Shown: positions 3,174-58,914 of the stretch, piece after piece
Position numbering within the stretch: position 1 is the stretch's first letter
Layout: each line of letters begins with the position of its first letter
Assembly: GCA_965227445.1 (NCBI GenBank)
Contig: OZ245751.1
Span: 4,178,499 to 4,242,498, forward strand
Length of the DNA stretch: 64,000 bases
Origin: Saprospiraceae bacterium
GTDB taxonomy: Bacteria; Bacteroidota; Bacteroidia; Chitinophagales; Saprospiraceae
Direction: 5' to 3'
Program-made: the position numbers and the translations under genes
Notes under the pieces: model-generated
Databases searched by the model: none
What the model saw: the letters and a program-made list of their open reading frames with translations, nothing else
Told to the model about the DNA's origin: nothing

Positions 3174-3480
3174 ATGAATGGTTTATTCATCATAGACAGA
3201 TGGAAGGGTCACAAGTTATACCGCTTCCGAAAAGGTTTGGGCTTTGCCAAACCTTTTCACGCGAGTATATACCCGACTCGAAGTGGTTTGGAGTCCCAGC
3301 ACGAAGTACTGCGGAGCAAAACCACTTCATTGTCGGTATATTTGCTGTTTTCATTCAACTCTTAATTCAAGTGGATTGTTGAGTCTAGTCGGCAGTAAAG
3401 AAGGAAAGGGTGTATTTCCGTTTTACCCTTAATTCAGCTACTTTTGCGGGGCCTTCTCGCCGTGCCGCTCTGGTGGGGTT

Positions 3481-5135: not shown

Positions 5136-5219
5136 GCCCGGGTGCTGGAATTGGTAGACAGGCATGGTTGAGGGCCATGTGTCCGTTAGGGCGTGCGGGT
5201 TCGACTCCCGCCTCGGGCA
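5136..5219 (+). tRNA. tRNA-Leu (anticodon GAG)
   Basis: Acceptor stem GCCCGGG/CTCGGGC, D-loop GGAATTGGTAGAC, anticodon loop TTGAGGG, long variable arm, T-arm GCGGGTTCGACTCCCGC. Confidence 0.8.
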
Positions 5220-5471
5220 CTCTACCACCAAAGTGAACTGTTGACACGTTCTTTTTTTTGCCCTGATTTCTTTTTTCTTTTAGAAATCGGACTTGCCCCC
5301 AAGGTTTTCTGCAACGACTAAACAAAGTTCTTCCCGGTGTTGTATCTTTAAAACGTGTATGCTCCTAGAGCGACATTTTCGGATACTACACATACGCAGT
5401 GAAAACCGGAAAGACATGAATGCTCTTCGTCGTACGACATCGTATTTTATCACCCAAGCAGTCGCGCCACC

Positions 5472-36700: not shown

Positions 36701-38612
36701 CTTGTACTGGCACCATTTCCTGGAAACTGACCAGCGCAAGCATCTGGACCAGCAACTGGCTCATGCCGGACAGATTTTGCGGGTATTTCCCCGTACCAAA
36801 GAGTTCGATTATTTGCGGGGTGAACTGCGCAGTGCGCTGCAAAGGTTAAACGACCAATGGCAAATCTTTCCCGACTTCCTCATTCCGGAAGCGGCTGCTT
36901 ACCTATTCGAAGAGCGCGTACGTCGCCGCACCGGCTTTGTATCGGCACCCGAAGCGGCCGAATTATACAATGCCTTTTGGCAAACCATTACATCGCAAAA
37001 GGCCGTCGAAACCATCCGGGAAGGACTGGAAGAACTTGCTGAGCAACCCCTGGAGCAGTATCACCTGGTCAGGCAGTGGGTGTACGCTTTCCTGGAAACA
37101 AAATCTAATGGCGGCCAGCATGCCCTACTCGACGAAATCTCCTGCCTGGTGGTTATCGATGATTTTACGATCGACCATGCGGGCGAAGTATCCGCCCAAA
37201 GCACCCTGGAAGGGCTACGCGGCGACCATCCCCTTTTGCCGAAAGGCAAATACAAACTGAACTACCACGAGTTGACCGATAAAATGGAGCGGTTCCGGAA
37301 TGAAACGCAGCCCCTGTACCAACAATTTGCCGATCTGAAACGAACCCTGACCGAGGCTTTCCGGAAAGAAGCCCAACTGGATTCCTTTACGCCCAGGGTG
37401 CTCAGTTCCTTTGTCCGCAATCAATTGATTGATCAGGTCTATCTACCGATTTTCGGCGATAACCTGGCCAAGCAGATCGGTACGGCCGGCGAGCAAACCC
37501 GCACCGACCGCATGGGCATGCTGCTGTTAATTTCCCCACCCGGCTACGGGAAGACCACCTTGATGGAATACATCGCCGACCGCCTGGGCCTCATATTCGT
37601 GAAGGTGAACGGCCCGGCCATCGGACACCGGGTGACGGGCCTGGCCCCGTCCGATGCACCCACCATCGCCGCAGCCAACGAGCTGGAAAAACTGAACCTC
37701 GCCTTCGAGATGGGGGATAATATTATGCTGTACCTCGATGATATCCAGCACTGCCATCCCGAATTTCTCCAGAAATTCATCAGCCTGTGCGATGCCCAGC
37801 GCAAGATTGAAGGCGTGTATAAAGGAGAAGCCAAAACCTACGATCTGCGGGGACGGCGGGTCTGTGTAGTCATGGCCGGAAACCCCTATACCGAGCAGGG
37901 TGAGCGTTTTCAAATCCCGGATATGCTGGCCAACCGGGCCGATATTTACAATCTGGGAGATATCATTGGCGATAGTAAGGATGTTTTCGAGCTTAGCTAT
38001 CTGGAAAATGCACTTACCTCTAACGAACACCTCCAGGACCTGGTGGCGGGAGGACTCGACAATGTGTATGCCCTACTGAAAGCGATGAAGCAAGGGTCCA
38101 TGGAAGGAATTGACCTGAAAGGGAATTACGCACCGGAAGCTATCCGGGACTTCCAGGCTGTTTTGACAAAGATGGTACGCATCCGCGATGTTGTGCTGCG
38201 GGTTAACCAGGAATACATACGATCAGCTGCCACGGATGATGCTTTCCGTACCGAACCGTCCTTCAAATTGCAGGGTTCCTACCGAAATATGAATAAGCTG
38301 GCAGAAAAGGTAGTGCCCATAATGAACGAAGAGGAATTGAATACCCTCATCCTGGCCCATTACGAAGGGGAGTCCCAAACCCTGACTAGTGATGCCGAAG
38401 CCAACTTTCTGAAACTGAAGGAAATCATGGGGGCCCTCACCGAAGAAGAAGCCACCCGCTGGGAAGCCATTAAAGCGACTTTCGTCAAAAACAAACGCTT
38501 CTTCGGCGCAGACGGCACCGACCGCATGGCCCAGATCCTGGCCCAAATGGATGTATTTAACGAAAGTGTGCTGGGAATCCGCGATGCACTGCAAGGACGG
38601 AAGGACGGCTGA
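33744..38612 (+). CDS. giant (1622 aa) coiled-coil protein with C-terminal MoxR/AAA_5-like P-loop ATPase domain; function unknown
   Basis: About 450-aa globular N-terminal region, about 500-aa heptad-rich coiled coil, Walker A LLLISPPGYGKTTLMEY, Walker B-like IMLYLDDIQH, sensor VVMAGNPY. Stop codon is supplied by the first unit of the heptamer array. Confidence 0.6.
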   Translation: MTQKAQTTLEGGSYEIIRKRLLEQAGELRQRLQMLNTARKDVFGAIENTLIANERIHTGNYCMARDMVALGDYCLFGYNVHIGLRSGIVLQDVFSIYTFRDQSFGEGSLNLIQDEKFVTDFQNLYRYYKDAYFARFSRRGRYLYMVFYLSEKGEDIKAFKWLITDDGLEYIDNRSDHEVGLPDQYEFRWKVAGRDDQRRGAHPHVSILDRVFVETLGGDLTIKVEDNTDDGMGILREPVEHRDQTLDDAEFHYADLGNLIALKIRPYQEEPRYFIFNEKIQQALRIDALDRSGVLLPDQQGLIFANGYYLQTGEYKVFDNQPEYLQFKKRVVSPNGEDFLFVFYAPKEGQYCLHHYNVIEQTVATPILCHGFSIFPDGEMAYFKAEDEPTKHHQVQIWQTPFLAGETIPSEHTDNYLFKVGNKDLVKAMAECQEILSLTQKEDSYADLYDDLVRRTTDVLDSYYWIGQADTFRLDEPLEALRETARSAIGEFEKKRRQERETREATERVRTEAINLFEQIKRQTFNSIDLFVGSLADLRRLRGELVGLKERKYVDLELVEQLEEQAGKANERLSNDCVQFLLQEEALSPYDDRIQQASQGIDQLATAREAGERAETFQEISNELELLTEIVSNLKIDDATQTTHIIDQISGLFTLLNQSKASLKRHKENLQRTEATAEFTAQLKLLDQSTINYLDVADTPEKCDDYLSKIMVQLEELESKFVEIPEFTERLAEKREEIYGALEGRKNRLIEALNNRTTSLVSAADRILSGIRKRVHAFKKAEELNSFFAADLMVEKVRDLARQLTELNDSTKANGVLTRLKTQKEDALRQLRDKQDLFVDGEDLIKLGRHTFTVSTQPLELTVVRQGEQMAFHLTGTNFYDPIEDQSFQATRPIWDMQLPSENEEVYRGEYLAWELLPLATEAPWPTDDFPALLKMVRAEAAKRYEEGYVKGIHDEDATRILAALRQKSQALGLLHYSSRVRACGCLYWHHFLETDQRKHLDQQLAHAGQILRVFPRTKEFDYLRGELRSALQRLNDQWQIFPDFLIPEAAAYLFEERVRRRTGFVSAPEAAELYNAFWQTITSQKAVETIREGLEELAEQPLEQYHLVRQWVYAFLETKSNGGQHALLDEISCLVVIDDFTIDHAGEVSAQSTLEGLRGDHPLLPKGKYKLNYHELTDKMERFRNETQPLYQQFADLKRTLTEAFRKEAQLDSFTPRVLSSFVRNQLIDQVYLPIFGDNLAKQIGTAGEQTRTDRMGMLLLISPPGYGKTTLMEYIADRLGLIFVKVNGPAIGHRVTGLAPSDAPTIAAANELEKLNLAFEMGDNIMLYLDDIQHCHPEFLQKFISLCDAQRKIEGVYKGEAKTYDLRGRRVCVVMAGNPYTEQGERFQIPDMLANRADIYNLGDIIGDSKDVFELSYLENALTSNEHLQDLVAGGLDNVYALLKAMKQGSMEGIDLKGNYAPEAIRDFQAVLTKMVRIRDVVLRVNQEYIRSAATDDAFRTEPSFKLQGSYRNMNKLAEKVVPIMNEEELNTLILAHYEGESQTLTSDAEANFLKLKEIMGALTEEEATRWEAIKATFVKNKRFFGADGTDRMAQILAQMDVFNESVLGIRDALQGRKDG

Positions 38613-38995
38613 CGGCTGACGGCTGACGGCTGACGGCTGACGGCTGACGGCTGACGGCTGACGGCTGACGGCTGACGGCTGACGGCTGACGGCTGACGGC
38701 TGACGGCTGACGGCTGACGGCTGACGGCTGACGGCTGACGGCTGACGGCTGACGGCTGACGGCTGACGGCTGACGGCTGACGGCTGACGGCTGACGGCTG
38801 ACGGCTGACGGCTGACGGCTGACGGCTGACGGCTGACGGCTGACGGCTGACGGCTGACGGCTGACGGCTGACGGCTGACGGCTGACGGCTGACGGCTGAC
38901 GGCTGACGGCTGACGGCTGACGGCTGACGGCTGACGGCTGACGGCTGACGGCTGACGGCTGACGGCTGACGGCTGACGGCTGACGGCTGACGGCT
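38604..38995. repeat. perfect tandem heptanucleotide microsatellite (GACGGCT)x56
   Basis: 392 bp with no interruptions, read directly from the sequence; the reverse strand encodes (SRQPSAV)n. Confidence 0.95.
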
Positions 38996-39099
38996 AAGTT
39001 TTTATTTCCACTACACCGAGCCAAATTCTTGGGCCAAAAATTTGTCTGCTTTTATGGGCAAATCCGATGCTGTTATGAATCGCAATAAGCAAACCGTTT

Positions 39100-39581
39100 A
39101 CCGTAGGCCGTGAGCCGTGGGCCATGGACCATGGACCTTGCAGGCTGACCGGGAATAGAAAAAGTCTCCTGTTTTTTAACTGCTTCCCTCATTTGTTATC
39201 AATAAGAGTTTTGAGTATCCGTACAGCCCGCATGGTCATCAGAATTACTCCATGAACGGAGGCACTTAATGCTGTATGGGAACGACTTTTAGAACGTGCC
39301 TAACGGCACTCTTGGACATCCTGCTGCTCACTCCGCACCGGCTAACGCCGGCGCTACATGAAGGTCGTGCCTAACGGCACTGGTACAAATAAAGGTACAT
39401 GATTGAAAGACTCAATTTATGGAGTATCAATGTATGTGTTGAGTTCCCGGTCAGCCTGCTTGGACCGTGAACCGTGAACCGTGAACCGTGAACCGTGGAC
39501 CGTGAACCGTGGGCCGTCTACCTTGGACCGTGGACCTTAGACCTTGGCAGCCCCACTTCACACCTCCTACTTCCTACTTCA
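39100..39581. repeat. degenerate heptamer runs (CCGTRGG/CCATGGA; GAACCGT x about 12; TACTTCC x3) with a 16-bp hairpin direct repeat between them
   Basis: 39100-39145 has CCGTAGG CCGTGAG CCGTGGG CCATGGA CCATGGA. 39462-39550 has GGACCGTG AACCGTG x5... 39561-39581 has CACCTCC TACTTCC TACTTCA. CGTGCCTAACGGCACT occurs twice at 39295 and 39357. Confidence 0.6.
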
Positions 39582-42923: not shown

Positions 42924-44543
42924 CTAACGATCCCGTACAATACCAGCGGTAAATAACAGATCAGTCTCCGGGTCCAGCACCAGTGTTTCTGCTTTCCCGC
43001 TAAATGGTACCCGGACAGTTTGGGTACGCCCGCTAATCTCCACTGATTTTGTACCCAGATCACTTAATTCCGTATCGGCAACCTGAATGGTTAATGGAAA
43101 GGTAAATAGTTCATCCTGCTTCTGGGTAATGGTCACTTCCGCTGTACCTCCACCCTCGAGTACGTTCCACTGTACCTCCAGGTCGGGAAACCCCGGTTGT
43201 CGCAACCACTGGTCGAAGAACTGTTGGAGGTCTTGTCCCGACACCTCTTCCATGACGGCCCTAAGGTCCTCGGTAAGTGCATTCCTGAGCTGGTAGCGCC
43301 GATAGTAGGTTCGTATTCCCTGCCAAAAGGCCTGGTCGCCGATCTTACGACGCAGCATGTGCAGTACCCAACCACCCTTCTGGTAAGAATTGGGATTCAG
43401 TAGCTGATTGAAATCGCGCACCGAGGGATCAATAATAGGAGCACTTCGGCGACGGCCATATCGCAATACCTGCAAGCGGTCGGCCTGTAAACGTTCGTCA
43501 AGCACCTCCCGGCCCTCAGTAGCTTCTACCCATAAATGGGTAAAATAAGTAGCGAAACCCTCACTTAACCATACGTGGTACCAGCTGCCCTCTGTGGCGG
43601 AATTCCCAAACCACTGGTGAGCAATTTCGTGGGCGATCAGTGCATTGCGTTCCCGCTTACCGGTCACGCTGTTCTCGAAATAGAAGATGTTACCCGCGTT
43701 CTCCATACCTCCGTAGCGGGTTTTCGACTGCACATTGGCCAGCTTCAGATAAGGGTAGGGGCCTACCTCTTCCATAAACCACTCCAAAATGGATACCGCA
43801 GGCTGGTAGTCGTAAAAGCCCTCCTCCCGATTATCCGGAAATACCCAGCTGGTCACCGGAATACCGTTAGCGTCGCCGGCATACTGTACCGCAAAGGGCG
43901 CCACACCGATCACCATCACCTTAGTGGGCAAGGGTACCTCCGTGGCAAAGCGGGTGAGCCGCCTACCATCAGGCAGGGTTGTTTCCTCCGTTTGACGCCC
44001 ATTTGCTACCACCTGGTAGACACCGGGAGCCGTAACGATCCACTCTACCGTCGCCTTATCCGAAGGGTGATCTACGGTCGGCAACCAGTGCCGCGCACGG
44101 TTAGGCCAGTTATCCCCAAAAAACGTCCGACTACCGAAGCGGTTTTCGCCTATGATCAGTCCGTCTTGTGGTACCCCCTGATAGGCGATCTGCAAGTCCA
44201 GGTTTGTTCCGGCCGTTAAGCCTTTCGGCAAAAAAATACGCAAGGATTGACCCTGGTGGCTGTATTCCAATTCTTCCCCGTCCAATTGAATCGACTGAAC
44301 CTCCATACCGGCATCATTCTGCCTGGATTGTAAATCCAATGCCACTTGATCCATGGGTTGCAACAATCGCAGGCGAACCAGCGCCCGACCATCAATAGTA
44401 TTGGTCTGATCCGACAGAGTGAGGTCAAAGGTATAATGGAGTACATCGATTTGGCTGAGGCGGTCGAGCTGTTCCTGGGCAATTCCAAGTGTCAGCAGGA
44501 ACAGCATCAGCAGGGTCATACCGGAACGCAGGGTGTTGATCAT
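42924..44543 (-). CDS. M1-family zinc aminopeptidase
   Basis: HEIAHQWFGN...WLSEGFATY (HExxH-18-E) gluzincin motif; signal peptide; 539 aa. Confidence 0.8.
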   Translation of the reverse strand: MINTLRSGMTLLMLFLLTLGIAQEQLDRLSQIDVLHYTFDLTLSDQTNTIDGRALVRLRLLQPMDQVALDLQSRQNDAGMEVQSIQLDGEELEYSHQGQSLRIFLPKGLTAGTNLDLQIAYQGVPQDGLIIGENRFGSRTFFGDNWPNRARHWLPTVDHPSDKATVEWIVTAPGVYQVVANGRQTEETTLPDGRRLTRFATEVPLPTKVMVIGVAPFAVQYAGDANGIPVTSWVFPDNREEGFYDYQPAVSILEWFMEEVGPYPYLKLANVQSKTRYGGMENAGNIFYFENSVTGKRERNALIAHEIAHQWFGNSATEGSWYHVWLSEGFATYFTHLWVEATEGREVLDERLQADRLQVLRYGRRRSAPIIDPSVRDFNQLLNPNSYQKGGWVLHMLRRKIGDQAFWQGIRTYYRRYQLRNALTEDLRAVMEEVSGQDLQQFFDQWLRQPGFPDLEVQWNVLEGGGTAEVTITQKQDELFTFPLTIQVADTELSDLGTKSVEISGRTQTVRVPFSGKAETLVLDPETDLLFTAGIVRDR

Positions 44544-44644
44544 AGTTTTTGTTTTGGCCTAATTTAGGGTTTCCAAAAGATTTCTAGACACAAGATTGGA
44601 AATTATGGTAGTGAGTAACGGGTATTTGGTATTAAGACGATCCG

Positions 44645-45310
44645 GGGACTGGAGGGAACGGAGGGACTGAAGTGACCGGAGAGACTCGTCTGGGCCGGGC
44701 TGCTTTAGTTATGTCTGGCTGCTGTATCTCTGCTCTTTATTGCGTAGTGCGTAGTGCATCGAGCGTAGAGACAGGGAGCGACTGTCGAGAACAAAGAGAC
44801 TGGAGAGAATGAAGAGACTGGAGGGACTCGTCTGGGCCGGGCTGCTTCGTTTTGCTGGTAGCTGCTGTGTCTTTGCTCTAGATTGCGTAGCGCATTGAGC
44901 ATTGAGCGTAGGGGGCCAACGCAAGAACGGTGCGCCATGAAACACTGTGAACCACCGCCCGTACGGGCTGCGCTCACCGCGTGAAAAAGGTAGATTTAGA
45001 GTTTAGACTCAAGATTAAAGACTGAAGACTGAATTCGAAATCGGAAATCGGAGGTCGGAAATCGGACGGTTAATGACTTCACTCCCACCGCTGAAGCGGA
45101 TGGGCTTAAACTGCCAACCGCCAACTGAGAACTGGAGACTGCCTACTGAGAACTGCCTACTGAGAACTGCCTACTGAAGACTGAATTCGAAATCGGACGG
45201 TTAATGACTTCACTCCCACCGCTGAAGCGGATGGGCTTAAACTGCCAACCGCCAACTGAGAACTGGAGACTGCCTACTGAGAACTGCGAACTGCCTACTG
45301 CCAACCCTCC
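44645..45310. repeat. composite mosaic repeat (left copy): heptamer-word region, an 85-bp core, then two units of about 120-150 bp
   Basis: The 85-bp core CACCGCCCGTACGGGCTGCGCTCACCGCGTGAAAAAGGTAGATTTAGAGTTTAGACTCAAGATTAAAGA is near-identical to 50507-50580. The units contain TCGAAATCGGACGGTTAATGACTTCACTCCCACCGCTGAAGCGGATGGGCTTAAACTGCCAACCGCCAACTGAGAACTGGAGACTGCCTACTGAGAACTGC. Confidence 0.75.
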
Positions 45311-45390
45311 TTTTGGCGAAAGCCAAACAATAGACCAGAGTAATCCATCATTGAGCATTCAACATTCCCTTTCCCCGTCTCCACAAAACC

Positions 45391-46746
45391 TCATTTGATG
45401 TGTTTCGGCTTCATGTGTGCAGCTCCATGCCCATAGTAGGCATCCATGGCTTTCTGATACCCTTGCCGCAGGAGGTCCAGGTGACGTTCTGTGGAAAAGG
45501 TATTGGCTTGCTCCAGGCCTTTTTGGACAGTCTCCCTACATAATGTATCATCACCGGCCAGGCGTTCCATGGCACCGGCGATGGAAGATACATCGTAGGG
45601 GTCGACATAAATAGGTGCATCACCTCCCACCTCGGGCAAGGATGAACAATTTGACGTAATGACCGGTACGCCCAGCGACATGGCCTCCAATACCGGCAAC
45701 CCGAATCCTTCGTACAGGGACGGAAAAATGAGTGCCTTGGCTCCCCGTAACAAATACATTAGTTGTTGCCGGGGAAGGTACATATACCGTCGAACCGCTT
45801 GACTACCATCCTCCTTCACCTGCTTAATTCGCTTTTTTTCTTTTTTGTACAACCACCCGTCACGGCCGGCGATAATCAGTGGCAACTCTGTATTAGCCAT
45901 GCCGGCCGCCTCCAGAATACGCATTACATTTTTCTTGGGCTCTATGGCTCCGAAAAACAGAAAATACCCTTGTGGCTTAAGATTGAAATTTTTGCTCAAT
46001 ACACTCCGCAGTTCATTGGCCGACATATCGCGAATGGCCGTGGGCACCTGAACCGATTGATAGGTAACCTGTATCTTGTCTTCCTCAATACCAAAGACAC
46101 GCTGCAGGTCGCGTTTACTGTGCTCGGAGATGACGTAAATATGATCGGCCTGATTCAGGGAGGCCGTAATTATATTACGGTAATGCCGCAGCATAACGTT
46201 CGTACTGTGCGGCAAGATCAATGGGATCAGGTCGTGAAGAGTCAGTACATTGGGGACGCCCTTCATGCGGACAGGAAGGGGGCTTGTACTGTGGTAGATA
46301 TCAATACCAGCCTTCCGGGGCATCGAAATCTTAAACGATTTCGGAAAGAAAAAGGCATAAAACTGAGACACGCGATACAGTGAGGGCACATTGTAGGTAT
46401 CACTGCCGGTTGGCAAATGCATTTCCATCCCTCGTCTTTCCACCCATTCCGGTGGGTGAAGCTGCCGGGGCCGGAGAGGCATATTCAATAGGTAAGGCAA
46501 GCTGTATAGTATGGCATGGGTGCCGTACCGAAGCACTTCTTTGGAATCAGCCTCGCCGTGTACCATCAGTCGTTGAATAAAACGAGACCACTTCAAATCA
46601 GGCCGTCGTCCTAATTTATCCATCCCGTACAGTACACTGACATCAATCCCGCCCGAAGTCAGTGTTTTAGCCAACTCCCGGGAATAGGTGCTCAACCCGG
46701 TACCTTTTTTCAGGGACATAGCAAATCCGTCCAGGCATACCTTCAT
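45391..46746 (-). CDS. GT4-family glycosyltransferase (retaining, GT-B)
   Basis: C-terminal domain with E-x7-E-like region FPSLYEGFGLPVLEAMSLGVPVITS. Start trimmed to the internal ATG (MKVCLDGF...). Confidence 0.75.
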   Translation of the reverse strand: MKVCLDGFAMSLKKGTGLSTYSRELAKTLTSGGIDVSVLYGMDKLGRRPDLKWSRFIQRLMVHGEADSKEVLRYGTHAILYSLPYLLNMPLRPRQLHPPEWVERRGMEMHLPTGSDTYNVPSLYRVSQFYAFFFPKSFKISMPRKAGIDIYHSTSPLPVRMKGVPNVLTLHDLIPLILPHSTNVMLRHYRNIITASLNQADHIYVISEHSKRDLQRVFGIEEDKIQVTYQSVQVPTAIRDMSANELRSVLSKNFNLKPQGYFLFFGAIEPKKNVMRILEAAGMANTELPLIIAGRDGWLYKKEKKRIKQVKEDGSQAVRRYMYLPRQQLMYLLRGAKALIFPSLYEGFGLPVLEAMSLGVPVITSNCSSLPEVGGDAPIYVDPYDVSSIAGAMERLAGDDTLCRETVQKGLEQANTFSTERHLDLLRQGYQKAMDAYYGHGAAHMKPKHIK

Positions 46747-46765
46747 ATTAGTGGTGTTTCTAGTA

Positions 46766-48319
46766 CTAAACGTATCCGCCTTTGGGATTAATGAATTGAA
46801 TAATAGAGCGGCGATCAGATTCAATAGGCTGAACGATCCGGGCAATTTGGTCGGCAAAAGCCCCGGGGTCGGCATGGACATCTTCTACCCGGAAGACGTG
46901 CGCTTTATCCCCCACTTTTGACTGGAATCGGCGTACCATGTTCGTGTGATTATGAGCCACTTCCAATAATCGTTCGGCGTGTATGTCCCAATCTTTTCCA
47001 TCGTGCCGGGCTGAAGAACGGGCAATGGCTTCGGGGTCACGATATACAAATATGTAGACCGGACGTATTAACAAATGCCTTATTTTTTCAATGTAGTAAA
47101 TATTATTCGGCACCTTCCAGCCCCAGTAGGGGTAGGTACGATTCCGTTGATGAATGACTGGTCCCAATTGCTTCAGTGCGAGGTGCTTGTTTTTGGGTTT
47201 AATCTTGAATGCGGGGTCTTCGTACTGGCTGGTTCTCACCTCTCCCATGTATACACCTGCACGCTGCAGAGAGCCGGCAATCAGACTGGTACCCCCGCGG
47301 GGACATCCCAGAACGACAAAGGTTTTTTTAGTCTTGGGAAAAAGGCGAATCAACCAGGCAAAGGAGCGAAGATGCCATCCGGCAGTATGAAGCCGACGTA
47401 CTCCTCCCCGCAGGATGCCCTTTGCTCTTTTCGACGACCTTGATAAAAACCCGGGGGGGGGCAAAGGCTCTCCCTGGGGTTGATCCGTCTTATCGGGAGC
47501 CGGTAATGCCGGAATGCGTTTGTTTAGGTTCTCAAATATAGAGGGATCACCTACTGCTACCTCCTTTTGTTCAATCGCCTGTAGCAGAGCCTGATCTATT
47601 GGATCAAGCCAGTCATTCAGGTAAGTATTCAACTCCTTTCGGAAAAAATGGGTCATAAAGACCGTCTGTTGCAGGCTGAGGTCATTCCGGTGCCGTTTGG
47701 GTACTCCTTTATTAAACTGAGTAAAAGCTTTTTCTTTCACCTGATCCGCCAATTTGGCCAAATCGGGCAGCTCCGACTGGCTGTAGCCCAATTGGGCACC
47801 CAGCCGCAATAGAAATGCTTCACTGTGAAAAGCAACCTCATCGTAGGTAGACGCCAGTACCCCCGGCTGCGACACCCACGACTGATGGATGCTCATTTGG
47901 TTTTTGACGGTAGCCATAGCAGAGGCTACGGAATCAACATTCATGAATGCTCCGCGTCCGCGGTTCCGGGCGCGTCGTCCGGCATCGACAAGTGACAGCG
48001 TATTGTCGCGAGGATCACGAATATTTGCATGTCCCAAGCTATTTCCGTCCTGCAGCATGGCTATCAGATAAGGAGAAGGGGCCCCATGCGTTTTGATGGC
48101 CAGTATGCGTCCAGGTTCCAATGCATTCTCTATCTGGGTTGCCATTGATTCGTCGAAGGCCTCAGTTTGTTTGCCATTCAGGAAATTCACCCGGCGGTCC
48201 GTAAAAAAAGGTAAATCAAGTCGTTCCTGGGGGTGACCTAACGCCTCCAGCAAGCCTTTGGTAAGTTCAAAAGCAAGTGTGCTGCCCGATTTTCGAATGC
48301 CATAACTAAAGTAGAGCAT
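46766..48319 (-). CDS. tandem double sulfotransferase-domain protein
   Basis: Two P-loop-like 5'-PAPS-binding motifs: RKSGSTL near the N-terminus and GCPRGGTSL in the second half, each followed by sulfotransferase-like length. Confidence 0.5.
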   Translation of the reverse strand: MLYFSYGIRKSGSTLAFELTKGLLEALGHPQERLDLPFFTDRRVNFLNGKQTEAFDESMATQIENALEPGRILAIKTHGAPSPYLIAMLQDGNSLGHANIRDPRDNTLSLVDAGRRARNRGRGAFMNVDSVASAMATVKNQMSIHQSWVSQPGVLASTYDEVAFHSEAFLLRLGAQLGYSQSELPDLAKLADQVKEKAFTQFNKGVPKRHRNDLSLQQTVFMTHFFRKELNTYLNDWLDPIDQALLQAIEQKEVAVGDPSIFENLNKRIPALPAPDKTDQPQGEPLPPPGFLSRSSKRAKGILRGGVRRLHTAGWHLRSFAWLIRLFPKTKKTFVVLGCPRGGTSLIAGSLQRAGVYMGEVRTSQYEDPAFKIKPKNKHLALKQLGPVIHQRNRTYPYWGWKVPNNIYYIEKIRHLLIRPVYIFVYRDPEAIARSSARHDGKDWDIHAERLLEVAHNHTNMVRRFQSKVGDKAHVFRVEDVHADPGAFADQIARIVQPIESDRRSIIQFINPKGGYV

Positions 48320-48336
48320 ATAATGTATACTTCCCG

Positions 48337-49059
48337 CTACCCCGGAAACCGGTAGCCAAATTTATGTATTTCAAAAGCGTATTCCCGTTCAACAATTCCC
48401 TGTGTTTCGGAATCGAACAGGAAGGCAGGAATTGCCCAATCGGGCCTGATCCCTCCTTTGCTATTACCCAATCGCTTACTATCCCAGGGAATTTGCAGCT
48501 TCCGACAAATACGCGCCATCTCTTGCTCCAGATTTTCGTACCGGATCACCTCATCCAGGATGTAATCCTCTCCGATACAATAAATGCGTCGATCCACCGG
48601 AAATTTACCGTCTAAGATCCAGTGCCGGAATGCCATTCGCTCCTCCTCCGGAGTTCCGACCGGAATTCGGGCTTTACTTTTTTTAAAAAAATAGGAGGAA
48701 ATGACTTTCGTAAACGGGTTGCGGATGGTCGCGAACTTGAGATATCTTTCCCAAACCTCCGTTTCCACCTGACGGCGAACTTTGCGTGCCGACATGTGAT
48801 TATGCCATTTTGCCATCTTTTTTTGCCGCAAGGCCCGGACAAAGGGATAGGAGTATTGAAACTGCCACGTTCGCTCTTCCACGTACCTGTTTCCCCTTTT
48901 ACCTATGATACCATGGCTGGATTCATAAGGCAAGGCCTGATCACCAGGACTATCTTCCTCCGGTCCCAAGCAGAATGGTTCGAAGTAGTACTCAACCGAC
49001 GTGCTTGCCGTCTTGCGGGTCTTCAGGAAAATGAACTTATATCTATGGCTAACCAGCAT
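48337..49059 (-). CDS. sulfotransferase-family protein (family-2-like)
   Basis: FLKTRKTASTS N-terminal PAPS-binding motif; 240 aa. Confidence 0.5.
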   Translation of the reverse strand: MLVSHRYKFIFLKTRKTASTSVEYYFEPFCLGPEEDSPGDQALPYESSHGIIGKRGNRYVEERTWQFQYSYPFVRALRQKKMAKWHNHMSARKVRRQVETEVWERYLKFATIRNPFTKVISSYFFKKSKARIPVGTPEEERMAFRHWILDGKFPVDRRIYCIGEDYILDEVIRYENLEQEMARICRKLQIPWDSKRLGNSKGGIRPDWAIPAFLFDSETQGIVEREYAFEIHKFGYRFPG

Positions 49060-49078
49060 AAGAAGATTTTAACCGTGA

Positions 49079-50314
49079 TTAATCATCGTCATCGTCATCT
49101 CCTTCATCTATTTGGCCGGGAGACAGACAATCCGGATAAACCTCCTCTGTCACCAATCGGTGGTAGCATTCAATACCGGGATGAAATTTTCCCATAGTCA
49201 CCAGATTAGACATAATCCCTTTGAATAGCCCCAGAAAATTCCGCAGTAAAAACAAATAGGGTACTAGCCTGGGGGCTTCACTCCGTATATCTCCGGTAGC
49301 AAAAACAATGCCAGGAATAATGATCAGCGAAAGGGGAAAGAGGTATTCGGCAAAAAGGGGGCCGCGTCTTTTCTCCCGGCGAATGCCCAGCTTATTGCGC
49401 ATGGCTTCGCCCATATACCCGGTTTCGTATAGTTGGTAAATGCGCTTCCGCAAATCGACGTCAGCCATCGGAGCTTGCTCCAGAGAAGCCATAAAGTCCT
49501 TTTGTTCCTGCTTGCGACCGGTAGCAATCAGCTTCCGGTCCTTGACCGCCTTGGTAACCTTATTCATGGTTAACATGATAAACCCTCCGCTGACCAGAAG
49601 CAACAACAGCATCAGCAGGGTTACCAGTGGATTTAACCAGAGCAGAATAACCAGGTAAACGGGAATGGTTACCAAATCACTCAGAGCCGACGAGAACTGA
49701 CGCATCACATTTCCGCAGGAAAAGGCCAGGTTCGTGGTGATTCGACGTACGGGCCGAAGGGCAAAACGATCGGCAAATTTATACTGCAATGCCTCCAGCC
49801 CCCGGGCCGCGGCCTCCACGATGGTGGCCCGCATCACATCCAGTGTTCGCAAATGGAACACATAATTGATCCGGATTCCGGCAAATACAAACCCCACGAT
49901 CAACCCCATTAGCACGGAGATCGATACCGGTGTGATCGGGACCTCAACATCCCCGATCGATAACCTATCCAGGGAATTAGTCACATATCGGGTTAAGGGT
50001 ATGAGCAAGAGAAACCCACCAGCCGTACACAGGGAACTGACTACACTCAATACCGCAATCCGGATCAAACGGTAACGATTAATCCGCAGGAAACTCCGAA
50101 TGACCCGCAAGAGGGGCTTCAGGTAATCCCGCTGCACAGAAAAGGCCGCTATTGGTTGGCGAATGGACAATTGTAGCGTATTGCGTGGGTTCGCTGTAAA
50201 GCTACGTTTTTTTTCACTGTCAGTGCGTTGGAGACTGGAGGGACCGGGAGTGACTTGAGGGACTCGCCAGAGTAGGGGCTGTTCGGTTGCGATTGATTGC
50301 TGTGCTCTGCTCAT
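49079..50314 (-). CDS. membrane protein resembling an ABC-exporter transmembrane domain without nucleotide-binding domain; poly-Asp C-terminus
   Basis: Six predicted TM helices in an ABC type-I exporter-like arrangement, no Walker motifs, ends DEGDDDDDD. The 5' 90 nt lie inside the repeat block, so the start is uncertain. Confidence 0.35.
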   Translation of the reverse strand: MSRAQQSIATEQPLLWRVPQVTPGPSSLQRTDSEKKRSFTANPRNTLQLSIRQPIAAFSVQRDYLKPLLRVIRSFLRINRYRLIRIAVLSVVSSLCTAGGFLLLIPLTRYVTNSLDRLSIGDVEVPITPVSISVLMGLIVGFVFAGIRINYVFHLRTLDVMRATIVEAAARGLEALQYKFADRFALRPVRRITTNLAFSCGNVMRQFSSALSDLVTIPVYLVILLWLNPLVTLLMLLLLLVSGGFIMLTMNKVTKAVKDRKLIATGRKQEQKDFMASLEQAPMADVDLRKRIYQLYETGYMGEAMRNKLGIRREKRRGPLFAEYLFPLSLIIIPGIVFATGDIRSEAPRLVPYLFLLRNFLGLFKGIMSNLVTMGKFHPGIECYHRLVTEEVYPDCLSPGQIDEGDDDDDD

Positions 50315-51045
50315 ACTTGCGTCGAGCGTGGAGCGTAGGGACTGGGAGTGACTGAAGTGAACGAAGCGACCGGAGGGATTCGCCTGAGCCTGGCTGCCTC
50401 GTTTTGCTTACGGCGATTGGATCATTGCTCTTGATTGCATGGAGCGTAGTGCGTCGGGCGTCGAGCGTCGAGCGTGGAGCGTGGAGCGTCGAGCGTACCA
50501 CGGAAGCACCGCCCGTACGGGCTGCGCTCACCGCGTGAAAAAGGTAGATTTAGAGTTTAGACTCAAGATTAAAGATTGAAGACTGACTTCGAAATCGGAC
50601 GGTTAATGACTTCACTCCCACCGCTGAAGCGGATGGGCTTAAACTGCCAACCGCCAACTGAGAACTAGAGACTGCCTACTGAGAACTGCCTACTGAGAAC
50701 TGCCTACTGAGAACTGCCTACTGAAGACTGAATTCGAAATCGGACGGTTAATGACTTCACTCCCACCGCTGAAGCGGATGGGCTTAAACTGCCAACCGCC
50801 AACTGAGAACTAGAGACTGCCTACTGAGAACTGCCTACTGAAGACTGAATTCGAAATCGGACGGTTAATGACTCCAATCCCACCGCTGAAGCGGATGGGC
50901 TTAAACTGCCAACCGCCAACTGAGAACTGGAGACTGCCTACTGAGAACTGCCTACTGAAGACTGAATTCGAAATCGGACGGTTAATGACTCCAATCCCAC
51001 CGCTGAAGCGGATGGGCTTAAACTGCCCACTGACAAATCGTGCCT
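50220..51045. repeat. composite mosaic repeat (right copy): heptamer-word region (GAGCGTN)n, the 85-bp core, then four units of 145/117/117/about 80 bp
   Basis: Same orientation and near-identical to the left copy at 44645-45310. GAGCGTC GAGCGTG GAGCGTG GAGCGTC heptamers at 50459-50495. Confidence 0.75.
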
Positions 51046-51061
51046 GATCTCTGACCTCCAC

Positions 51062-52015
51062 TCACTCTGTCCATAGGTCCGACAATTCATAGGGCGACCC
51101 TTCCATGGCCCAGAGGCTACCGTCGATGTAGCGGAAATCCTTTCCAATGTGTTTTATGGCTTCCATGTCGCCTTCAGTGAGATTCACCTCGGCCGAAGCC
51201 AGGTTTTGCTCAATACGTCCGGGGTTAGTCGATTTCGGAATGACAGCGGTGCCCCTGTGCACAGCCCAACTGATCAGTACCTGGGCTGGAGTGCAATCAT
51301 ACTGCCTGGCAATGTCTTTGATGGTCGGGTCATCGAACAGGACGGGTTCATTTTCACGCTTCATGCGGCTCGCTCGGTCGCCGGAGCCCAGCGGCGAGTA
51401 TGCCGTCAAATGAATATCGTGGTCGTGGCAATAGTCAACTAATTTTTGTTGGGCCAGGTAAGGATGCATTTCCACCTGATTCATGGCGGGCCGGACCCGG
51501 GCATTTCGCATTACTTCGTCGAGCTTTTCGATATTGAAATTGGATACACCAATGTGGCGGGCGAGGCCTTCGGCGTGCATATCCTCCAGGCCAGACCAGG
51601 TTTCCGACAGCGGCACTTCGCTCAGGGAAAGAAAATCATCCGGCCCGTCCGGAAAGACTACGTCGGGCTTCATGGCCACCGGCCAGTGCACCAGGTATAG
51701 ATCGAGGTAATCCAATTGCAGGTCGGATAGGGTCTTTTTCAAGGCGGGCTTGATATCATCCCGTTTGTGGGCATTATTCCACAACTTAGACGTCACCCAA
51801 AGATCTTCACGCTTTACCAACCCGTCGTCCATTGCTTTACGCAGGGCTTTACCTACCTCTTTTTCGTTCATGTAGATGGCGGCACAATCGATGTGTCGGT
51901 ACCCCGATTTGATGGCGTGCAATACGGCATCGAATACTTCTCCGGGTGCAGATTTCCAGGTTCCAAGGCCGATGGCCGGCATAGTATCTCCATTGGCAAA
52001 GGTGAGGCTTTTCAT
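51062..52015 (-). CDS. aldo/keto reductase
   Basis: AIGLGTWKS, GYRHIDCAAIY and LVHWP AKR motifs; 317 aa. Confidence 0.85.
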   Translation of the reverse strand: MKSLTFANGDTMPAIGLGTWKSAPGEVFDAVLHAIKSGYRHIDCAAIYMNEKEVGKALRKAMDDGLVKREDLWVTSKLWNNAHKRDDIKPALKKTLSDLQLDYLDLYLVHWPVAMKPDVVFPDGPDDFLSLSEVPLSETWSGLEDMHAEGLARHIGVSNFNIEKLDEVMRNARVRPAMNQVEMHPYLAQQKLVDYCHDHDIHLTAYSPLGSGDRASRMKRENEPVLFDDPTIKDIARQYDCTPAQVLISWAVHRGTAVIPKSTNPGRIEQNLASAEVNLTEGDMEAIKHIGKDFRYIDGSLWAMEGSPYELSDLWTE

Positions 52016-52422
52016 ATTGGATATCAGGTTTGGTTGTTTGAATGAGATATACCCTTACAACAACTGCTCTGAACTGATGTTTCACCCGGCCCGGTCATTT
52101 CCGAAATGATCTACTCCGGTCCGGAATCAACCATCGTGATATCCCCTGGATATTTTGCGGGAAGCATGCTTCACCGCATGATAACTAATCAATAGCCACA
52201 TTTCAGAATAAAAAACTGAAACGCCCCGACCAAACCATAAATAATAAAAAGATCCCCCTGTAAAAGACACGTTAACAAACTATTATTTCAGACACCTCCA
52301 TTTGGAAATGTCGTAAAACGAACTACCTTTGCCGCCTTTTATTCCGCTCAATAAAGGGACGTTCCAGGCTTTTTAACAGCGGTCCATTCATGATGCAACA
52401 TCCAATACAAAGAATTGGCCCC

Positions 52423-53952
52423 ATGAAAAAATACTTCAACCTCTTCGACCTATCGCAAAAGGTAGACTACCGCACGGAAATCCTTTCCGGCCTGACCGTA
52501 GCCATGGCACTCATCCCCGAGGCCGTAGCCTTCGCTCTGATCGCTGGACTATCGCCCCTCACGGGCTTGTACGCGGCTTTTATGATGGGTCTGATCACTT
52601 CCATTTTCGGCGGACGTCCGGGTATGATTTCCGGTGCTACCGGTGCGATAGCGGTGGTCCTGGCCCCCCTGGCTCTGACCTACGGTGTAGAATACGTCTT
52701 TGCGGCCGTGGTCCTGGCTGGTTTGTTCCAGGTAATTGCAGGTGTATTGCGACTTGGTAAACTCATGCGCCTGGTACCACATCCGGTAATATTTGGATTT
52801 GTCAACGGTCTGGCCATTATCATCTTCATGTCGCAAATGGATCAGTTCAAAACGGAATCGGGCCAGTGGCTGCAGGGAACATCCCTGTACTTGATGTTGG
52901 GACTGGTGTTACTCACCATGCTGATCATCTGGGGATTGCCAAAACTAACTCGCGTGGTTCCTTCTTCCCTGGTCGCCATCCTGGTAGTCTTCGGCGTAGT
53001 GACGGCTATGCAATGGGATGTGCGTACAGTAGGGGACCTGGCTTCTATCAAGGGTGGCTTTCCACCTTTTCACTTACCGCTTGTACCCTTTACGCTGGAA
53101 ACGCTGCGAATCATTGCGCCATTTTCCGCCATTGTAGCGGGTGTCGGACTTATTGAAAGTCTGCTAACCCTCAACATCATCGACGAGATAACCCAAACGC
53201 GGGGTCGCGGCAATAAAGAAGCCGTAGCTCAGGGGATGGCCAACGTACTGTCCGGTATTTTTTCGGGTATGGGTGGTTGCGCTATGATCGGACAAAGCCT
53301 GATCAATATTTCCGCCGGAGCCCGTGCCCGGTTGTCCGGTATCGTAGCAGCCGTTATGTTGCTGGTATTCATCATGTTTGGCGCCAACCTGGTGGAACAA
53401 TTACCCATGGCAGCCCTGACCGGTTTGATGATCATGGTGGCCATCGGTACCTTCGAATGGGCCAGCCTCAAGACGATCAATAAGATGCCCCCTTCCGATA
53501 TCTTCGTAATGGTGGTAGTAACGGGCATCACTGCCGTACTGCACAACCTGGCGTTGGCGGTATTGATCGGTGTGATAATCGCTGCGCTCGTATTCGCGTG
53601 GGATAACGCCAAACGCATCCGTGCCAGAAAGCATACCGATGAGGATGGTGTGAAGCACTACGAAATATACGGCCCCCTGTTCTTCGGATCCGTGAGCGTC
53701 TTCAACGACAAATTCGATGTGCAAAATGACCCCGAAGAGGTCATCATCGATTTTCGCGAAAGCCGGGTAGTCGACATGTCGGCCATTGAAGCGTTGAATA
53801 AGATCACCGAGCGCTACCAAAAAGCGGGCAAGAAGGTTCACCTGCAGCACCTGAGCCCCGATTGCCGTAAGCTCCTGAAAAACGCGGATAAGATCATCGA
53901 TGTTAATGTCCTGGAAGACCCCAACTACAAATTGGTGGTCGACAAGATCTAG
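52423..53952 (+). CDS. SulP-family anion transporter with C-terminal STAS domain
   Basis: Start at the internal ATG (MKKYFNLFDLS...). Multi-TM core and a STAS-like C-terminal 120 aa. Confidence 0.8.
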   Translation: MKKYFNLFDLSQKVDYRTEILSGLTVAMALIPEAVAFALIAGLSPLTGLYAAFMMGLITSIFGGRPGMISGATGAIAVVLAPLALTYGVEYVFAAVVLAGLFQVIAGVLRLGKLMRLVPHPVIFGFVNGLAIIIFMSQMDQFKTESGQWLQGTSLYLMLGLVLLTMLIIWGLPKLTRVVPSSLVAILVVFGVVTAMQWDVRTVGDLASIKGGFPPFHLPLVPFTLETLRIIAPFSAIVAGVGLIESLLTLNIIDEITQTRGRGNKEAVAQGMANVLSGIFSGMGGCAMIGQSLINISAGARARLSGIVAAVMLLVFIMFGANLVEQLPMAALTGLMIMVAIGTFEWASLKTINKMPPSDIFVMVVVTGITAVLHNLALAVLIGVIIAALVFAWDNAKRIRARKHTDEDGVKHYEIYGPLFFGSVSVFNDKFDVQNDPEEVIIDFRESRVVDMSAIEALNKITERYQKAGKKVHLQHLSPDCRKLLKNADKIIDVNVLEDPNYKLVVDKI

Positions 53953-56695: not shown

Positions 56696-57199
56696 TTATT
56701 GGATTCGGGCTACGAATGCTTTGAGTTTTTCCGGTTCTTCGGTTTCCTGATAGGTATGTACATTGGCCAGGTAGTGCATCCCCAGGTAATCGGCTATTTC
56801 CCGAAAGGGAATCCAAAAATCGTCCCCCAAATTCCCGCCGTTCGAACAGCTCAGGACTGCCATACTTTTGCCCCGCAGCGTCCGTCCGAGGTCTTTTTCG
56901 ATGGTCAGCAGATCCGTAAACCGGTCAAAAAAGATTTTTAAGGTACCCGACATAGCGTACCAATATACCGGAGTCGCAAAAACAAACACCTCGTAATTCG
57001 TGGTCAAATGCCTCATCAGTGGCAGGAAATCATCGTTGCGGTTACGGTGGTGGTAGTCGTAAGCGGAGATCTGGTACTCATTGAGGTCTACGTGATCCCA
57101 TTCAGTGATTTCAGTGATGAACCTGACCTTCCGGTTGGTATCCCCGTCGCTACGTGCGCTCCCCTGAATTATGACCACCTTATTGCCTGACTTGTTCAT
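56696..57199 (-). CDS. flavodoxin-like fold NAD(P)H-dependent FMN reductase family protein
   Basis: VVIIQGSARSDGDT N-terminal flavodoxin-like motif and ATPVYWYAMSG. Confidence 0.55.
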   Translation of the reverse strand: MNKSGNKVVIIQGSARSDGDTNRKVRFITEITEWDHVDLNEYQISAYDYHHRNRNDDFLPLMRHLTTNYEVFVFATPVYWYAMSGTLKIFFDRFTDLLTIEKDLGRTLRGKSMAVLSCSNGGNLGDDFWIPFREIADYLGMHYLANVHTYQETEEPEKLKAFVARIQ

Positions 57200-57504
57200 A
57201 CATGGAGTTGCCGTACCCAGCGATCTGCCTTTTTAGTCACGGATTTACGCTCGTCGGATTGCAATACTTCAATCTTTGGCAGGAGCCATTGACGAAGGGA
57301 CTCGTCCTTGGCCGCACGCCTCCCTAAGAAATCCATGGTGGTATTCAGAACGACCCAATCCAACCAGGTTTCCAGGTTGTGTGCAAAAAAGATACATAGA
57401 TTCCAGGATAACCCAACTCCCGATCCGCTTAATAATTGAAGTGGTTTTACCGATAAACCTCAAGAATAGCACTCACAGTAATGAGAAGGTTGAAGGATCA
57501 ATGA

Positions 57505-57930
57505 TGAATGCTCAATATGAGTTTGCTTTTTGGGCTTTCGCCAGGCTTCAGTGGGCAGTAGGCAGTTTAAGCCCATCCGATTCAGCGGTGGGAGTGGAGT
57601 CAGTAACCGTCCGATCTCGAAGTCAGTCTCCAGTTCTCAGTTGGCAGTAGGCAGTTTATCTCCGATTTATTGCCATCAGTCGCTAACGCTCGTGTCCGGT
57701 TTCAAAATGCCTGCTCAACTCCGCTACGGTGAGCATTGCAGGTTGAGTTGAAAACCGTGAACCGTGCCCGCCTACCGAAGCTTTGCGTAGGCAGGGACCG
57801 TGAACCACTAAAGTGGTATGATGCTGGGGGATTCCGCTTTAACACCACAGCTGAAGCTGGGGCCTGATAATTATCCTGCCACGTGGTGCCTGAACCGTGG
57901 ACCGTGGACCGTGAGCCGTGAACCTCAAAC
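57505..57930. repeat. inverted, diverged copy of the mosaic repeat unit plus (GAACCGT)-type heptamer runs
   Basis: 57552-57672 is the reverse complement of the AAGCCCATCCGCTTCAGCGGTGGGAGTGAAGTCATTAACCGTCCGATTTCGA unit with about 10% divergence. ACCGTGAACCGTG and CCGTGGACCGTGGACCGTGAGCCGTGAACC recall 39462-39550. Confidence 0.6.
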
Positions 57931-58680
57931 GTTCGAATCCATCCAGATCTGCCATTGGCCTTCGGCATTGCGGCGCCAGATCAGGACGTACTTCCCTCCG
58001 TAGCTACCGGAGCACTGCCCGATCTCCAGAACCAGGTCCTTGCGCACCGGCTGAACCACCAGGGGGCTGAGGTGTAACGAATACTCTTCGTTATTCATGT
58101 AGCTGTACGTCGACGTGATCTGCTCACGCCCGACGATCATTGGCCGGTGATTGTAGTAGAGGGCTTCGGGTTCGTATAGTTGCTCTACCAGTGCGGCAGC
58201 ATCGTGCTCATTACACAATTCGATCCACTTGTCACGGGCCTGGTCAAGAGAAGCAAGGTCGGTACGACCGGGCGCCAAAGGCGCTACAAAATCCAATTCC
58301 CGCAGGTATTGCCCGTTTACCTCACGCCAGATCACCAATTGGATGTAATCGGGACCACTGGCGGGTTTTAACCGGCTGATATCGTAGCGAACATCGGTAT
58401 TGGGATTAGCAAGCTCGCAAAAGATGGGCTCTATGGAATTGACGGTCTGTTGCCGACTCAGCAGGGGCGCCAGGTACTTTTGCCGCTCTCCGGCAGTAGT
58501 AATCTGTCGTCCTTCTCCCGTAAGGGTGATGGCATGCCCGGTGTAATGCTTTTGAATGTATTGCGGCTGCTCGTTGAGCAGGCGTTGCCAGATGTGGTTC
58601 GCTGCTTCACATTCAGTGGGCAGATTAGTCGCTGGCGGGACAGACATCCCTACCAGGAGGTATAGAATAACGGTGAGCAT
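57925..58680 (-). CDS. NTF2-like fold protein, two tandem DUF4440/SnoaL-like domains
   Basis: Signal peptide; two repeats ending ...LVIWREVNGQY and ...YVLIWRRNAEGQWQIWMD. Confidence 0.4.
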   Translation of the reverse strand: MLTVILYLLVGMSVPPATNLPTECEAANHIWQRLLNEQPQYIQKHYTGHAITLTGEGRQITTAGERQKYLAPLLSRQQTVNSIEPIFCELANPNTDVRYDISRLKPASGPDYIQLVIWREVNGQYLRELDFVAPLAPGRTDLASLDQARDKWIELCNEHDAAALVEQLYEPEALYYNHRPMIVGREQITSTYSYMNNEEYSLHLSPLVVQPVRKDLVLEIGQCSGSYGGKYVLIWRRNAEGQWQIWMDSNV

Positions 58681-58689
58681 AGTTAATTA

Positions 58690-58734
58690 GGTTTGAGGTT
58701 TGAGGTTTGAGGTTTGAGGTTTGAGGATTTGAGG
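58690..58734. repeat. tandem heptamer (GTTTGAG)x5 plus a degenerate sixth unit
   Basis: Read directly; abuts the start codon region of the 57925-58680 gene. Confidence 0.85.
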
Positions 58735-58914
58735 CGGTCAGGGGAGGTTGCGGCCTGTAAAAGACCTGGGGCTATCCATATATACCGACAACGAAGTGGT
58801 TTGGGACTCCAAACCACTTCGAGTCGAGTATATACTCGCGTGAAAAGGTTTGGCAAAGCCCAAACCTTTTCGGAAGCGGTATAGATGCAATAAATAACGC
58901 TTTCGGTGGGTCCA

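Follow-up and report, generated by a model that had tools for sequence, protein, structure and literature searches.

The 64,000-nt stretch of a Saprospiraceae bacterium genome analysed here (GCA_965227445.1, contig OZ245751.1, positions 4,178,499 to 4,242,498 of the forward strand; hereafter the window) carries four minus-strand genes bracketed exactly by two composite intergenic repeats that run in the same direction. These genes encode a family 4 glycosyltransferase (GT4), two sulfotransferase-like proteins (S1 and S2) and a membrane protein, and as an operon they probably modify a surface glycan. They lie between the genes of an aldo-keto reductase (AKR) and an M1 peptidase, all six on the minus strand. 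We consider it probable that the composites, which belong to a dispersed family resembling the bacterial interspersed mosaic elements (BIME) of enterobacteria, have served in direct orientation as substrates for homologous recombination that deleted this accessory operon in relatives of the window. An earlier reading of the sequence alone (the original prediction) had set as its test that relatives should show the locus without the four genes and with a single repeat, and this is the state that we found in two of them.

The left spacer (44653-45367) and the right spacer (50231-51045) are homologous over nearly their full length, and each composite, about 700-800 nt long, occupies the whole of its spacer (Table 1). 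Both share one order of A modules, a core (C module) and tandem U units with a hairpin, with a T module on the left only, and the modules are interleaved with 7-nt tracts. On the minus strand, that of the genes, they follow one another as (T)-U units-core-A modules-next gene, and the right composite stops 16 nt from the stop codon of the AKR gene. The original prediction had described an 85-bp core at 44953 and 50507, followed in the same orientation by two units on the left and four on the right, the last truncated, of 117-145 nt. Unit matches and Tandem Repeats Finder agree with these unit numbers and lengths, and the orientation is as described. The core is indeed identical at both places, with a length of 69 nt as written (44953-45021 and 50507-50575) inside the shared block given in Table 1. 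The repeats themselves are real and their homology reaches about 300 nt further left than claimed, over the A modules, which are 73-85 % identical between the two sides (44653-44911 versus 50231-50461).

The identity of the 69-nt core is not a chance match (0 expected, none in 100 shuffles). A 77-nt unit recurs with at most two mismatches at 45056, 45187, 50589, 50734 and 50851 (n = 5), a truncated sixth U copy lies at 50968-51027, and left and right share one exact stretch of 127 nt, the longest, and several of 69-81 nt. The lengths of the U units differ in multiples of 14 nt, equal to two heptamers (ACTGCCT/ACTGAGA), and the lag-7 match fraction is 0.52-0.65 in the composites, rising to 1.0 among the heptamer repeats, versus a window background of 0.26. 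Each U unit holds the hairpin CCCACCGC-TGAA-GCGGATGGG inside a longer imperfect palindrome, with ACTGNNN heptamer tracts alongside. On the minus strand the unit folds at -38.7 kcal/mol (z = -2.45 versus shuffles); a covariation check of 23 copies found the hairpin near-invariant, and the few changes present break pairs. Intrinsic terminators and sigma-70 promoters were no more numerous in the repeats than in shuffles, the only sites from these searches inside the repeats being weak 5-bp stems in the A modules. Rfam 15 gave no match at gathering thresholds in the window and none at E <= 1 in 44400-51200.

To place the locus among its relatives we found homologues of the membrane protein, the GT4 and the M1 peptidase and compared their contigs, which carry L numbers below. 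Two of these, L022 (from JGI 3300076194) and L023 (from ERZ1757541, a contig of 467 kb), are without the cassette. In both, the AKR gene is followed directly by the M1 peptidase gene across spacers of 613 and 749 nt that contain exactly one composite each and no cassette remnant. The flanks are 91.5-92.2 % identical to those of the window at the nucleotide (nt) level in L022, whose M1 protein is 96 % identical, and 83-85 % in L023; both are nearer to the window than a species sampled by Tara Oceans that carries the cassette. In the L022 spacer, the left 150 nt are orthologous to that portion of the right repeat which faces AKR (compared with the Tara species and L018). Identity to the left repeat of the Tara species is 89 % over bases 154-350, and the final part of the spacer runs continuously into the M1 side of the window at 92 %.

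The filled order AKR-composite-membrane-S2-S1-GT4-composite-M1 is kept in the sister strain L019 (a 6.8-Mb contig, 98.8 % nt identity over 17.9 kb), in the Tara species (L014-L016, about 81 % nt) and in the JGI contig L018 (76-81 % nt). Unit and heptamer counts differ among strains and species, as the original prediction of unit-number variation had it. The window and L019 both have four units on the right and two on the left with differing heptamer counts (right unit lengths 145/117/117 in the window versus 131/124/117 in L019), and the relatives at about 80 % identity (L014-L016, L018) have one U unit per flank. L020 carries the cassette on a contig that ends within the repeats, so its flank genes are not covered. 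Its nt identity to the window over 45391-50200 is uneven, at 87 % for GT4, 80 % for the membrane gene, 75 % for S1 and 73 % for S2, a pattern that suggests recombination within the operon between lineages. In the distant relative L017 (membrane protein 53 % identical in amino acids, aa) the genes membrane-S1-GT4 sit at another locus, with gaps of 76 nt and 17 nt and no repeats. In the outgroups L025/L026 and L027 (M1 peptidase 70 % and 67 % aa) AKR stands beside M1, 227 and 290 nt apart, without the cassette, and profile searches of L025 and L027 found no modules of the family. L028 begins 142 nt upstream of M1 and is uninformative on the cassette.

The composites are not confined to this locus. 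A third family member with T and U parts (57499-57559 and 57533-57658) is inverted relative to both cassette flanks, giving three family loci within the window. A scan of one genome per species for a 26-base U pattern gave 12 sites on 10 contigs, all in one 'uncultured Saprospiraceae' metagenome-assembled genome (MAG) of Tara Oceans. All of these sites lie in long spacers beside unrelated genes, among them those for the DNA polymerase III delta subunit (holA), citrate synthase, gamma-glutamyltranspeptidase, an amidase, an ion channel, a carotenoid oxygenase and others, and copies of the T module are also present at many loci of this MAG. Profile searches with the four modules gave the order (T)-U-(T)-C-A(n) in the left and right composites of the window and in L002, L003, L005, L007, L009, L014, L018, L019 and L022, the exceptions being L010 (T-U-A-C) and L023, which is without a U module. 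The orientation of the composite relative to neighbouring genes is not constant. The same module order at most loci of the Tara MAG marks the composite as a repeatedly used mosaic element with no special tie to the cassette; the specificity assumed in the original prediction is contradicted by the copies beside core genes such as holA and citrate synthase and by the third copy in the window. Repeats beside core genes were among the observations that the original prediction had named as refuting it, and the Tara MAG shows them.

The spacer at 57200-57924 that holds this third copy is orthologous to L014 1060-1720 and L018 1300-2040 and differs from them by whole modules: the U hairpin is present in the window only, a core fragment in L018 only, and the lengths of the heptamer tracts differ. 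A search of metagenome contigs with the core returned one short contig, L021. We rejected a phage origin of the repeats, as the U pattern is absent from viral contigs.

In the tree of the flank genes, ((window, L019), L022) is joined by L023, next by L014 and L018 at about 80 % and last by the outgroups. The cassette genes of the window are 75-83 % identical to those of L014, and its flanks 80.5-81 %. Because the divergence of the cassette matches that of its flanks, the cassette appears to be as old as the clade, and since it looks that old, the empty sites of L022 and L023 are best explained by two separate deletions. The most likely route is exchange within the direct repeats, because each empty site keeps one composite and no gene remnant. 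Judged from these comparisons, the empty sites are most likely deletions and not ancestral states. We infer loss of the operon; its movement is unsupported. Of the recombination-driven module proposed in the original prediction, loss through the repeats is retained, and cassette-specific ends and mobility are given up.

With up to 127 nt of perfect identity, the two copies would be well suited to ordinary homologous recombination of the RecA type. One crossover between the direct copies would pop out the operon and leave one hybrid repeat between the AKR and M1 peptidase genes. Unequal exchange and replication slippage could alter the numbers of units and heptamers, and gene conversion may keep the left and right copies alike.

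Several points weigh against repeat-mediated deletion. In event counts, two independent gains are as parsimonious as one gain and two losses, and only the divergence argument favours loss over gain. Inside the L022 spacer, A modules resembling those of the right and of the left repeat are mixed in a mosaic. The mosaic of modules prevented exact mapping of the crossovers in L022 and L023, and the L022 spacer requires either that modules have since turned over or that its history was more complex. In no single population was a circular or deleted form seen. The genomes compared are all assemblies from metagenomes, and the dispersal counts come from the related Tara MAG and the 64-kb window of a 6.5-Mb genome. 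A misassembly that skipped the path over the repeat-flanked segment is possible; against this, L023 lies on a 467-kb contig, and L022 traverses other repeat-rich spacers unbroken.

One alternative, which we consider unlikely though with some weight, is that the single-repeat state is ancestral. The composite would have colonised the AKR-M1 spacer once and the cassette would have entered later, so that L022 and L023 never had it, or the window lineage would have regained it; a circle carrying a composite of its own could have entered by Campbell-type integration, or homologous recombination could have brought the cassette in from a relative. The outgroups, which are without both cassette and repeat, are compatible with such a history, as is the parity of event counts on the flank tree, and the mosaic identity of the L020 cassette to the window (GT4 87 %, S2 73 %) hints at inter-lineage exchange. 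Against it, the divergence of the cassette between the window and L014/L018 equals or exceeds that of the flanks, and the same architecture of right and left repeats is found in three deep lineages, which makes independent insertion at the same spot less likely. A late entry of the cassette also uses the repeats as recombination substrate.

A more far-reaching possibility is that the composite is an actively spreading non-autonomous family restricted to this Saprospiraceae clade, whose pairs routinely turn operons into units that pop out and re-enter, a general driver of accessory-gene turnover in these genomes; we find this doubtful. We are just as hesitant to propose that such a family is built by an unknown process in 7-nt steps, accepting nested mini-hairpin insertions, in parallel to the short tandemly repeated repetitive (STRR) and small-dispersed-repeat systems of filamentous cyanobacteria.

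The flank position of the repeats might alternatively be a coincidence, the repeats filling spacers neutrally or with a regulatory role (as insulators, RNA-stability elements or protein-binding sites) and the loss having occurred by an unrelated mechanism. The generic family, its copies beside core genes and its inconstant orientation, including the inverted copy at 57499-57658, would fit. We nevertheless hold this to be quite improbable, since both empty sites hold exactly one composite whose outer ends are orthologous to the AKR side of the right repeat and the M1 side of the left repeat with no remnant between, the signature of exchange within repeats, and illegitimate deletion would rarely be so clean on two occasions. 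The idea that cassette and repeats form a dedicated non-autonomous mobile element (like a miniature inverted-repeat transposable element, MITE, or integrative), mobilised in trans by an enzyme from another locus, is highly improbable: the direct repeats at both ends and a junction in L011 such as an excised circle or tandem copy would show (GT4 3' end, T, heptamers, core, right A modules, membrane gene) speak for it, whereas no terminal inverted repeats bound the composites, no integrase or tRNA is present, the cassette occupies the same locus in every cassette-bearing genome of the clade, its only other location (L017) is without repeats, and bases 1-334 of L011 are 98.8 % identical to L020 and the rest 99 % to the window, with the switch inside the shared core.

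The L011 junction (1-620; conspecific MAG GCA_030148525.1, JASBTH010000326.1) was rejected as evidence of a circle or tandem copy, being probably a metagenome chimera that formed at the repeat. Alternatively, that contig could hold two diverged cassettes genuinely arranged in tandem.

Deletion through the repeats, if correct, would provide a clean natural example of an accessory operon, probably for a surface glycan, made dispensable by generic intergenic repeats. Lineages that differ by only 5-15 % have the site either occupied or, where a single repeat marks it, vacant. With these loci a marine Saprospiraceae clade joins the few bacteria in which mosaic repeats phased at 7 nt dominate the spacers. 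Short-read assemblies break at the repeats of this locus and can be joined there into chimeric contigs, so gene content read from MAGs of this group should be treated with care.

For the cassette itself, the original prediction stands in the number of bracketed genes, the GT4 and, with a weak match for one of the two proteins, the sulfotransferase family. Its 'ABC-TMD-like' label for the membrane protein does not: searches of Pfam, NCBIfam and PDB gave no match supporting it, and the label rests only on the JGI name of one cluster member. The AlphaFold model of this protein was too poor (mean predicted local distance difference test score 50) and was left out of the fold search. Its longest open reading frame, of 411 aa, starts at 50314, and the first ~30 codons overlap an A module, whereas gene calls in relatives give 307-365 aa; the true start is probably near 50176, as called in relatives, the start at 50314 lying within the repeat and probably too far upstream. 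The unique segment between the right A module and the membrane gene (50150-50200) contains a conserved A-run followed by CGTAGCTTTA in the window, L014, L018 and L020, which we take to resemble the -7 promoter box TAnnTTTG of Bacteroidota, and the conserved TAGCTTTA motif at about 50190 is a candidate operon promoter.

The 517-aa S1 protein gave no NCBIfam or PDB matches. It carries GIRKSGST close to the N-terminus and GCPRGGTS around residue 340, both of them P-loop-like motifs, and may be a fusion of two sulfotransferase-like domains; Pfam picks up only the C-terminal one, weakly. Among the flank genes, the one at 42924-44543 was considered as a paralogue of the membrane protein and rejected, as it encodes the M1 peptidase, and an exact look-up of the window AKR protein matched no record.

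Table 1 Features of the cassette locus and of the repeat family (window coordinates unless a contig is named)
Feature	Position	Strand	Evidence or remark
M1 peptidase	42924-44543	-	Left flank gene
Left A modules (two)	44653-44768, 44795-44911	-	Direct-repeat families D3-D6 and nhmmer; beside M1 peptidase start
Left core (C module)	44949-45031	-	BLAST block; exact 69-nt match to right core; holds GCCCGTACGGGC palindrome
Left U units (two, 131 nt each)	45047-45303	-	Tandem Repeats Finder, period 131 x 1.9
Left T module	45304-45367	-	Module matches; TTGGCGAAAGCCAA hairpin and CATTGAG-type heptamers; directly after GT4 stop codon
Cassette gene 4, family 4 glycosyltransferase (GT4)	45391-46746	-	Pfam Glycos_transf_1 (E = 2.5e-26) and Glyco_transf_4; NCBIfam GT4 families
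Cassette gene 3 (S1), 517 aa, weak sulfotransferase match	46766-48319	-	Pfam Sulfotransfer_3, 23.5 bits, below 27-bit cut-off
Cassette gene 2 (S2), Sulfotransfer_2 family	48337-49059	-	Pfam PF03567, 32.9 bits, above 22-bit cut-off
Cassette gene 1, multi-helix membrane protein	49079-50200/50314	-	No curated family
Right A modules (two) and GAGCGTN heptamer tract	50231-50344, 50347-50461; tract 50442-50496	-	Direct-repeat, Tandem Repeats Finder and module searches
Right core (C module)	50503-50585	-	BLAST block and exact match
Right U units (145, 117, 117 nt and truncated copy)	50577-51045	-	Tandem Repeats Finder, periods 145 and 117
Aldo-keto reductase (AKR)	51062-52015	-	Right flank gene
Third family member, T and U modules	57499-57658	+	BLAST 87-91 % identity; inverted pairs I1-I7; between genes 56696-57199 and 57925-58680
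Mini-hairpin sites	L009 5428, 7573; L014 8808; L018 8389, 8559; L022 9737, 9774; L023 9644, 9732; window 57769-57797		

Heptamer arrays and small repeats are also found elsewhere. A perfect (GACGGCT)56 array at 38604-38995 starts in the last codons of the gene 33744-38612 (1622 aa) and provides its stop codon; its equivalent in L019 has 10 copies (L019 17749-17818). In contig L011, three heptamers are missing. More arrays, (GAACCGT/GGACCGT)n and (GAGGTTT)6, lie in long spacers at 39088-39145, 39459-39547, 57745-57925 and 58689-58734, and their orthologous lengths differ among the window, L014 and L018. Small hairpin elements, of the types CTGCCCGCC-GAAG-GTGGGCG and CCTGCCTACGC...GCTTCGGCAGGCA, sit in ACGCTCN heptamer tracts, nested like Russian dolls; such insertions are absent from the window's two cassette flanks. 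An unrelated 82-nt repeat (3217-3298 and 58802-58883), an inverted pair 99 % identical and 55 kb apart with two short hairpins, is probably another dispersed family.

We compared the locus with known classes of elements. Three features of BIME and of repetitive extragenic palindromic (REP) sequences are present: dispersal beside unrelated genes, a hairpin palindrome and a recurring order of motifs. An inverted-repeat search over 43000-53000 found no arms at the composite ends, as a MITE would have. For an integrative element or genomic island, the cassette and its neighbours offer no integrase and no tRNA, the only tRNA in the window being at 5136-5220; cassette GC is 0.48-0.51, near that of the window overall, so there is no GC anomaly. 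Pfam found neither integrase nor transposase in the cassette or its neighbours, as the original prediction had stated. A clustered regularly interspaced short palindromic repeats (CRISPR) array is not a match, since the sequence between the U hairpins is itself repeated in units of 117-145 nt that are 90-98 % identical. Simple-sequence repeats of heptamers, as in long simple sequence repeats (LSSR) and STRR, are present, with Tandem Repeats Finder periods of 7, 14 and 21 and a strain-variable copy number. The distribution of the cassette is that of a minimal mobile element: it is present in the window, L019, L014 and L018, absent in L022, L023, L025 and L027, and carries no mobility genes.

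The BIME and REP or palindromic unit (PU) sequences of enterobacteria were reportedly described by Gilson, Bachellier, Hofnung and colleagues. Like them, the composites are dispersed in spacers, combine a small number of short motifs, some of them imperfect palindromes, in an order that recurs, vary in copy number per cluster and are possible recombination substrates. Unlike them, they are 400-900 nt long, strongly phased at 7 nt and hosted by Bacteroidota, and there is no sequence similarity.

Long simple sequence repeats were reportedly treated by Mrazek in 2007, and cyanobacterial STRR are heptanucleotide tandem repeats. The tracts described here resemble such systems in having several 7-nt unit types in intergenic arrays of up to tens of copies, with strain-specific numbers, in a clade rich in filamentous bacteria. 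TAACTGA repeats are found in Beggiatoaceae, Cyanobacteria and Bacteroidetes (MacGregor 2015, PMC4679880). The heptamers here are ACTGNNN, GAGCGTN, GAACCGT and GACGGCT and not TAACTGA, and the tracts, unlike those of heptanucleotide repeat systems, are embedded in larger modules (U, C, A, T) that form a dispersed composite. Small dispersed repeats nested in MITE-like elements of cyanobacteria were reportedly described by Elhai et al. in Genome Research in 2008. The hairpin elements inserted in heptamer tracts and in each other in L009, L014, L018, L022 and L023 are alike in kind, whereas the sequences and the phylum differ and the window flanks are without mini-insertions.

Finally, minimal mobile elements and repeat-flanked islets of Neisseria have been discussed (PMC1797815, PMC3787668). 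As in those elements, an accessory cassette without mobility genes is present or absent between conserved genes, and its turnover is attributed to homologous recombination. In Neisseria the exchange is mainly via flank-gene homology after transformation, whereas here the direct repeats supply homology for an intrachromosomal pop-out. The composite has no sequence relationship to the BIME/REP, heptamer, cyanobacterial or Neisseria systems; repeat-mediated operon loss is a known kind of genome change.

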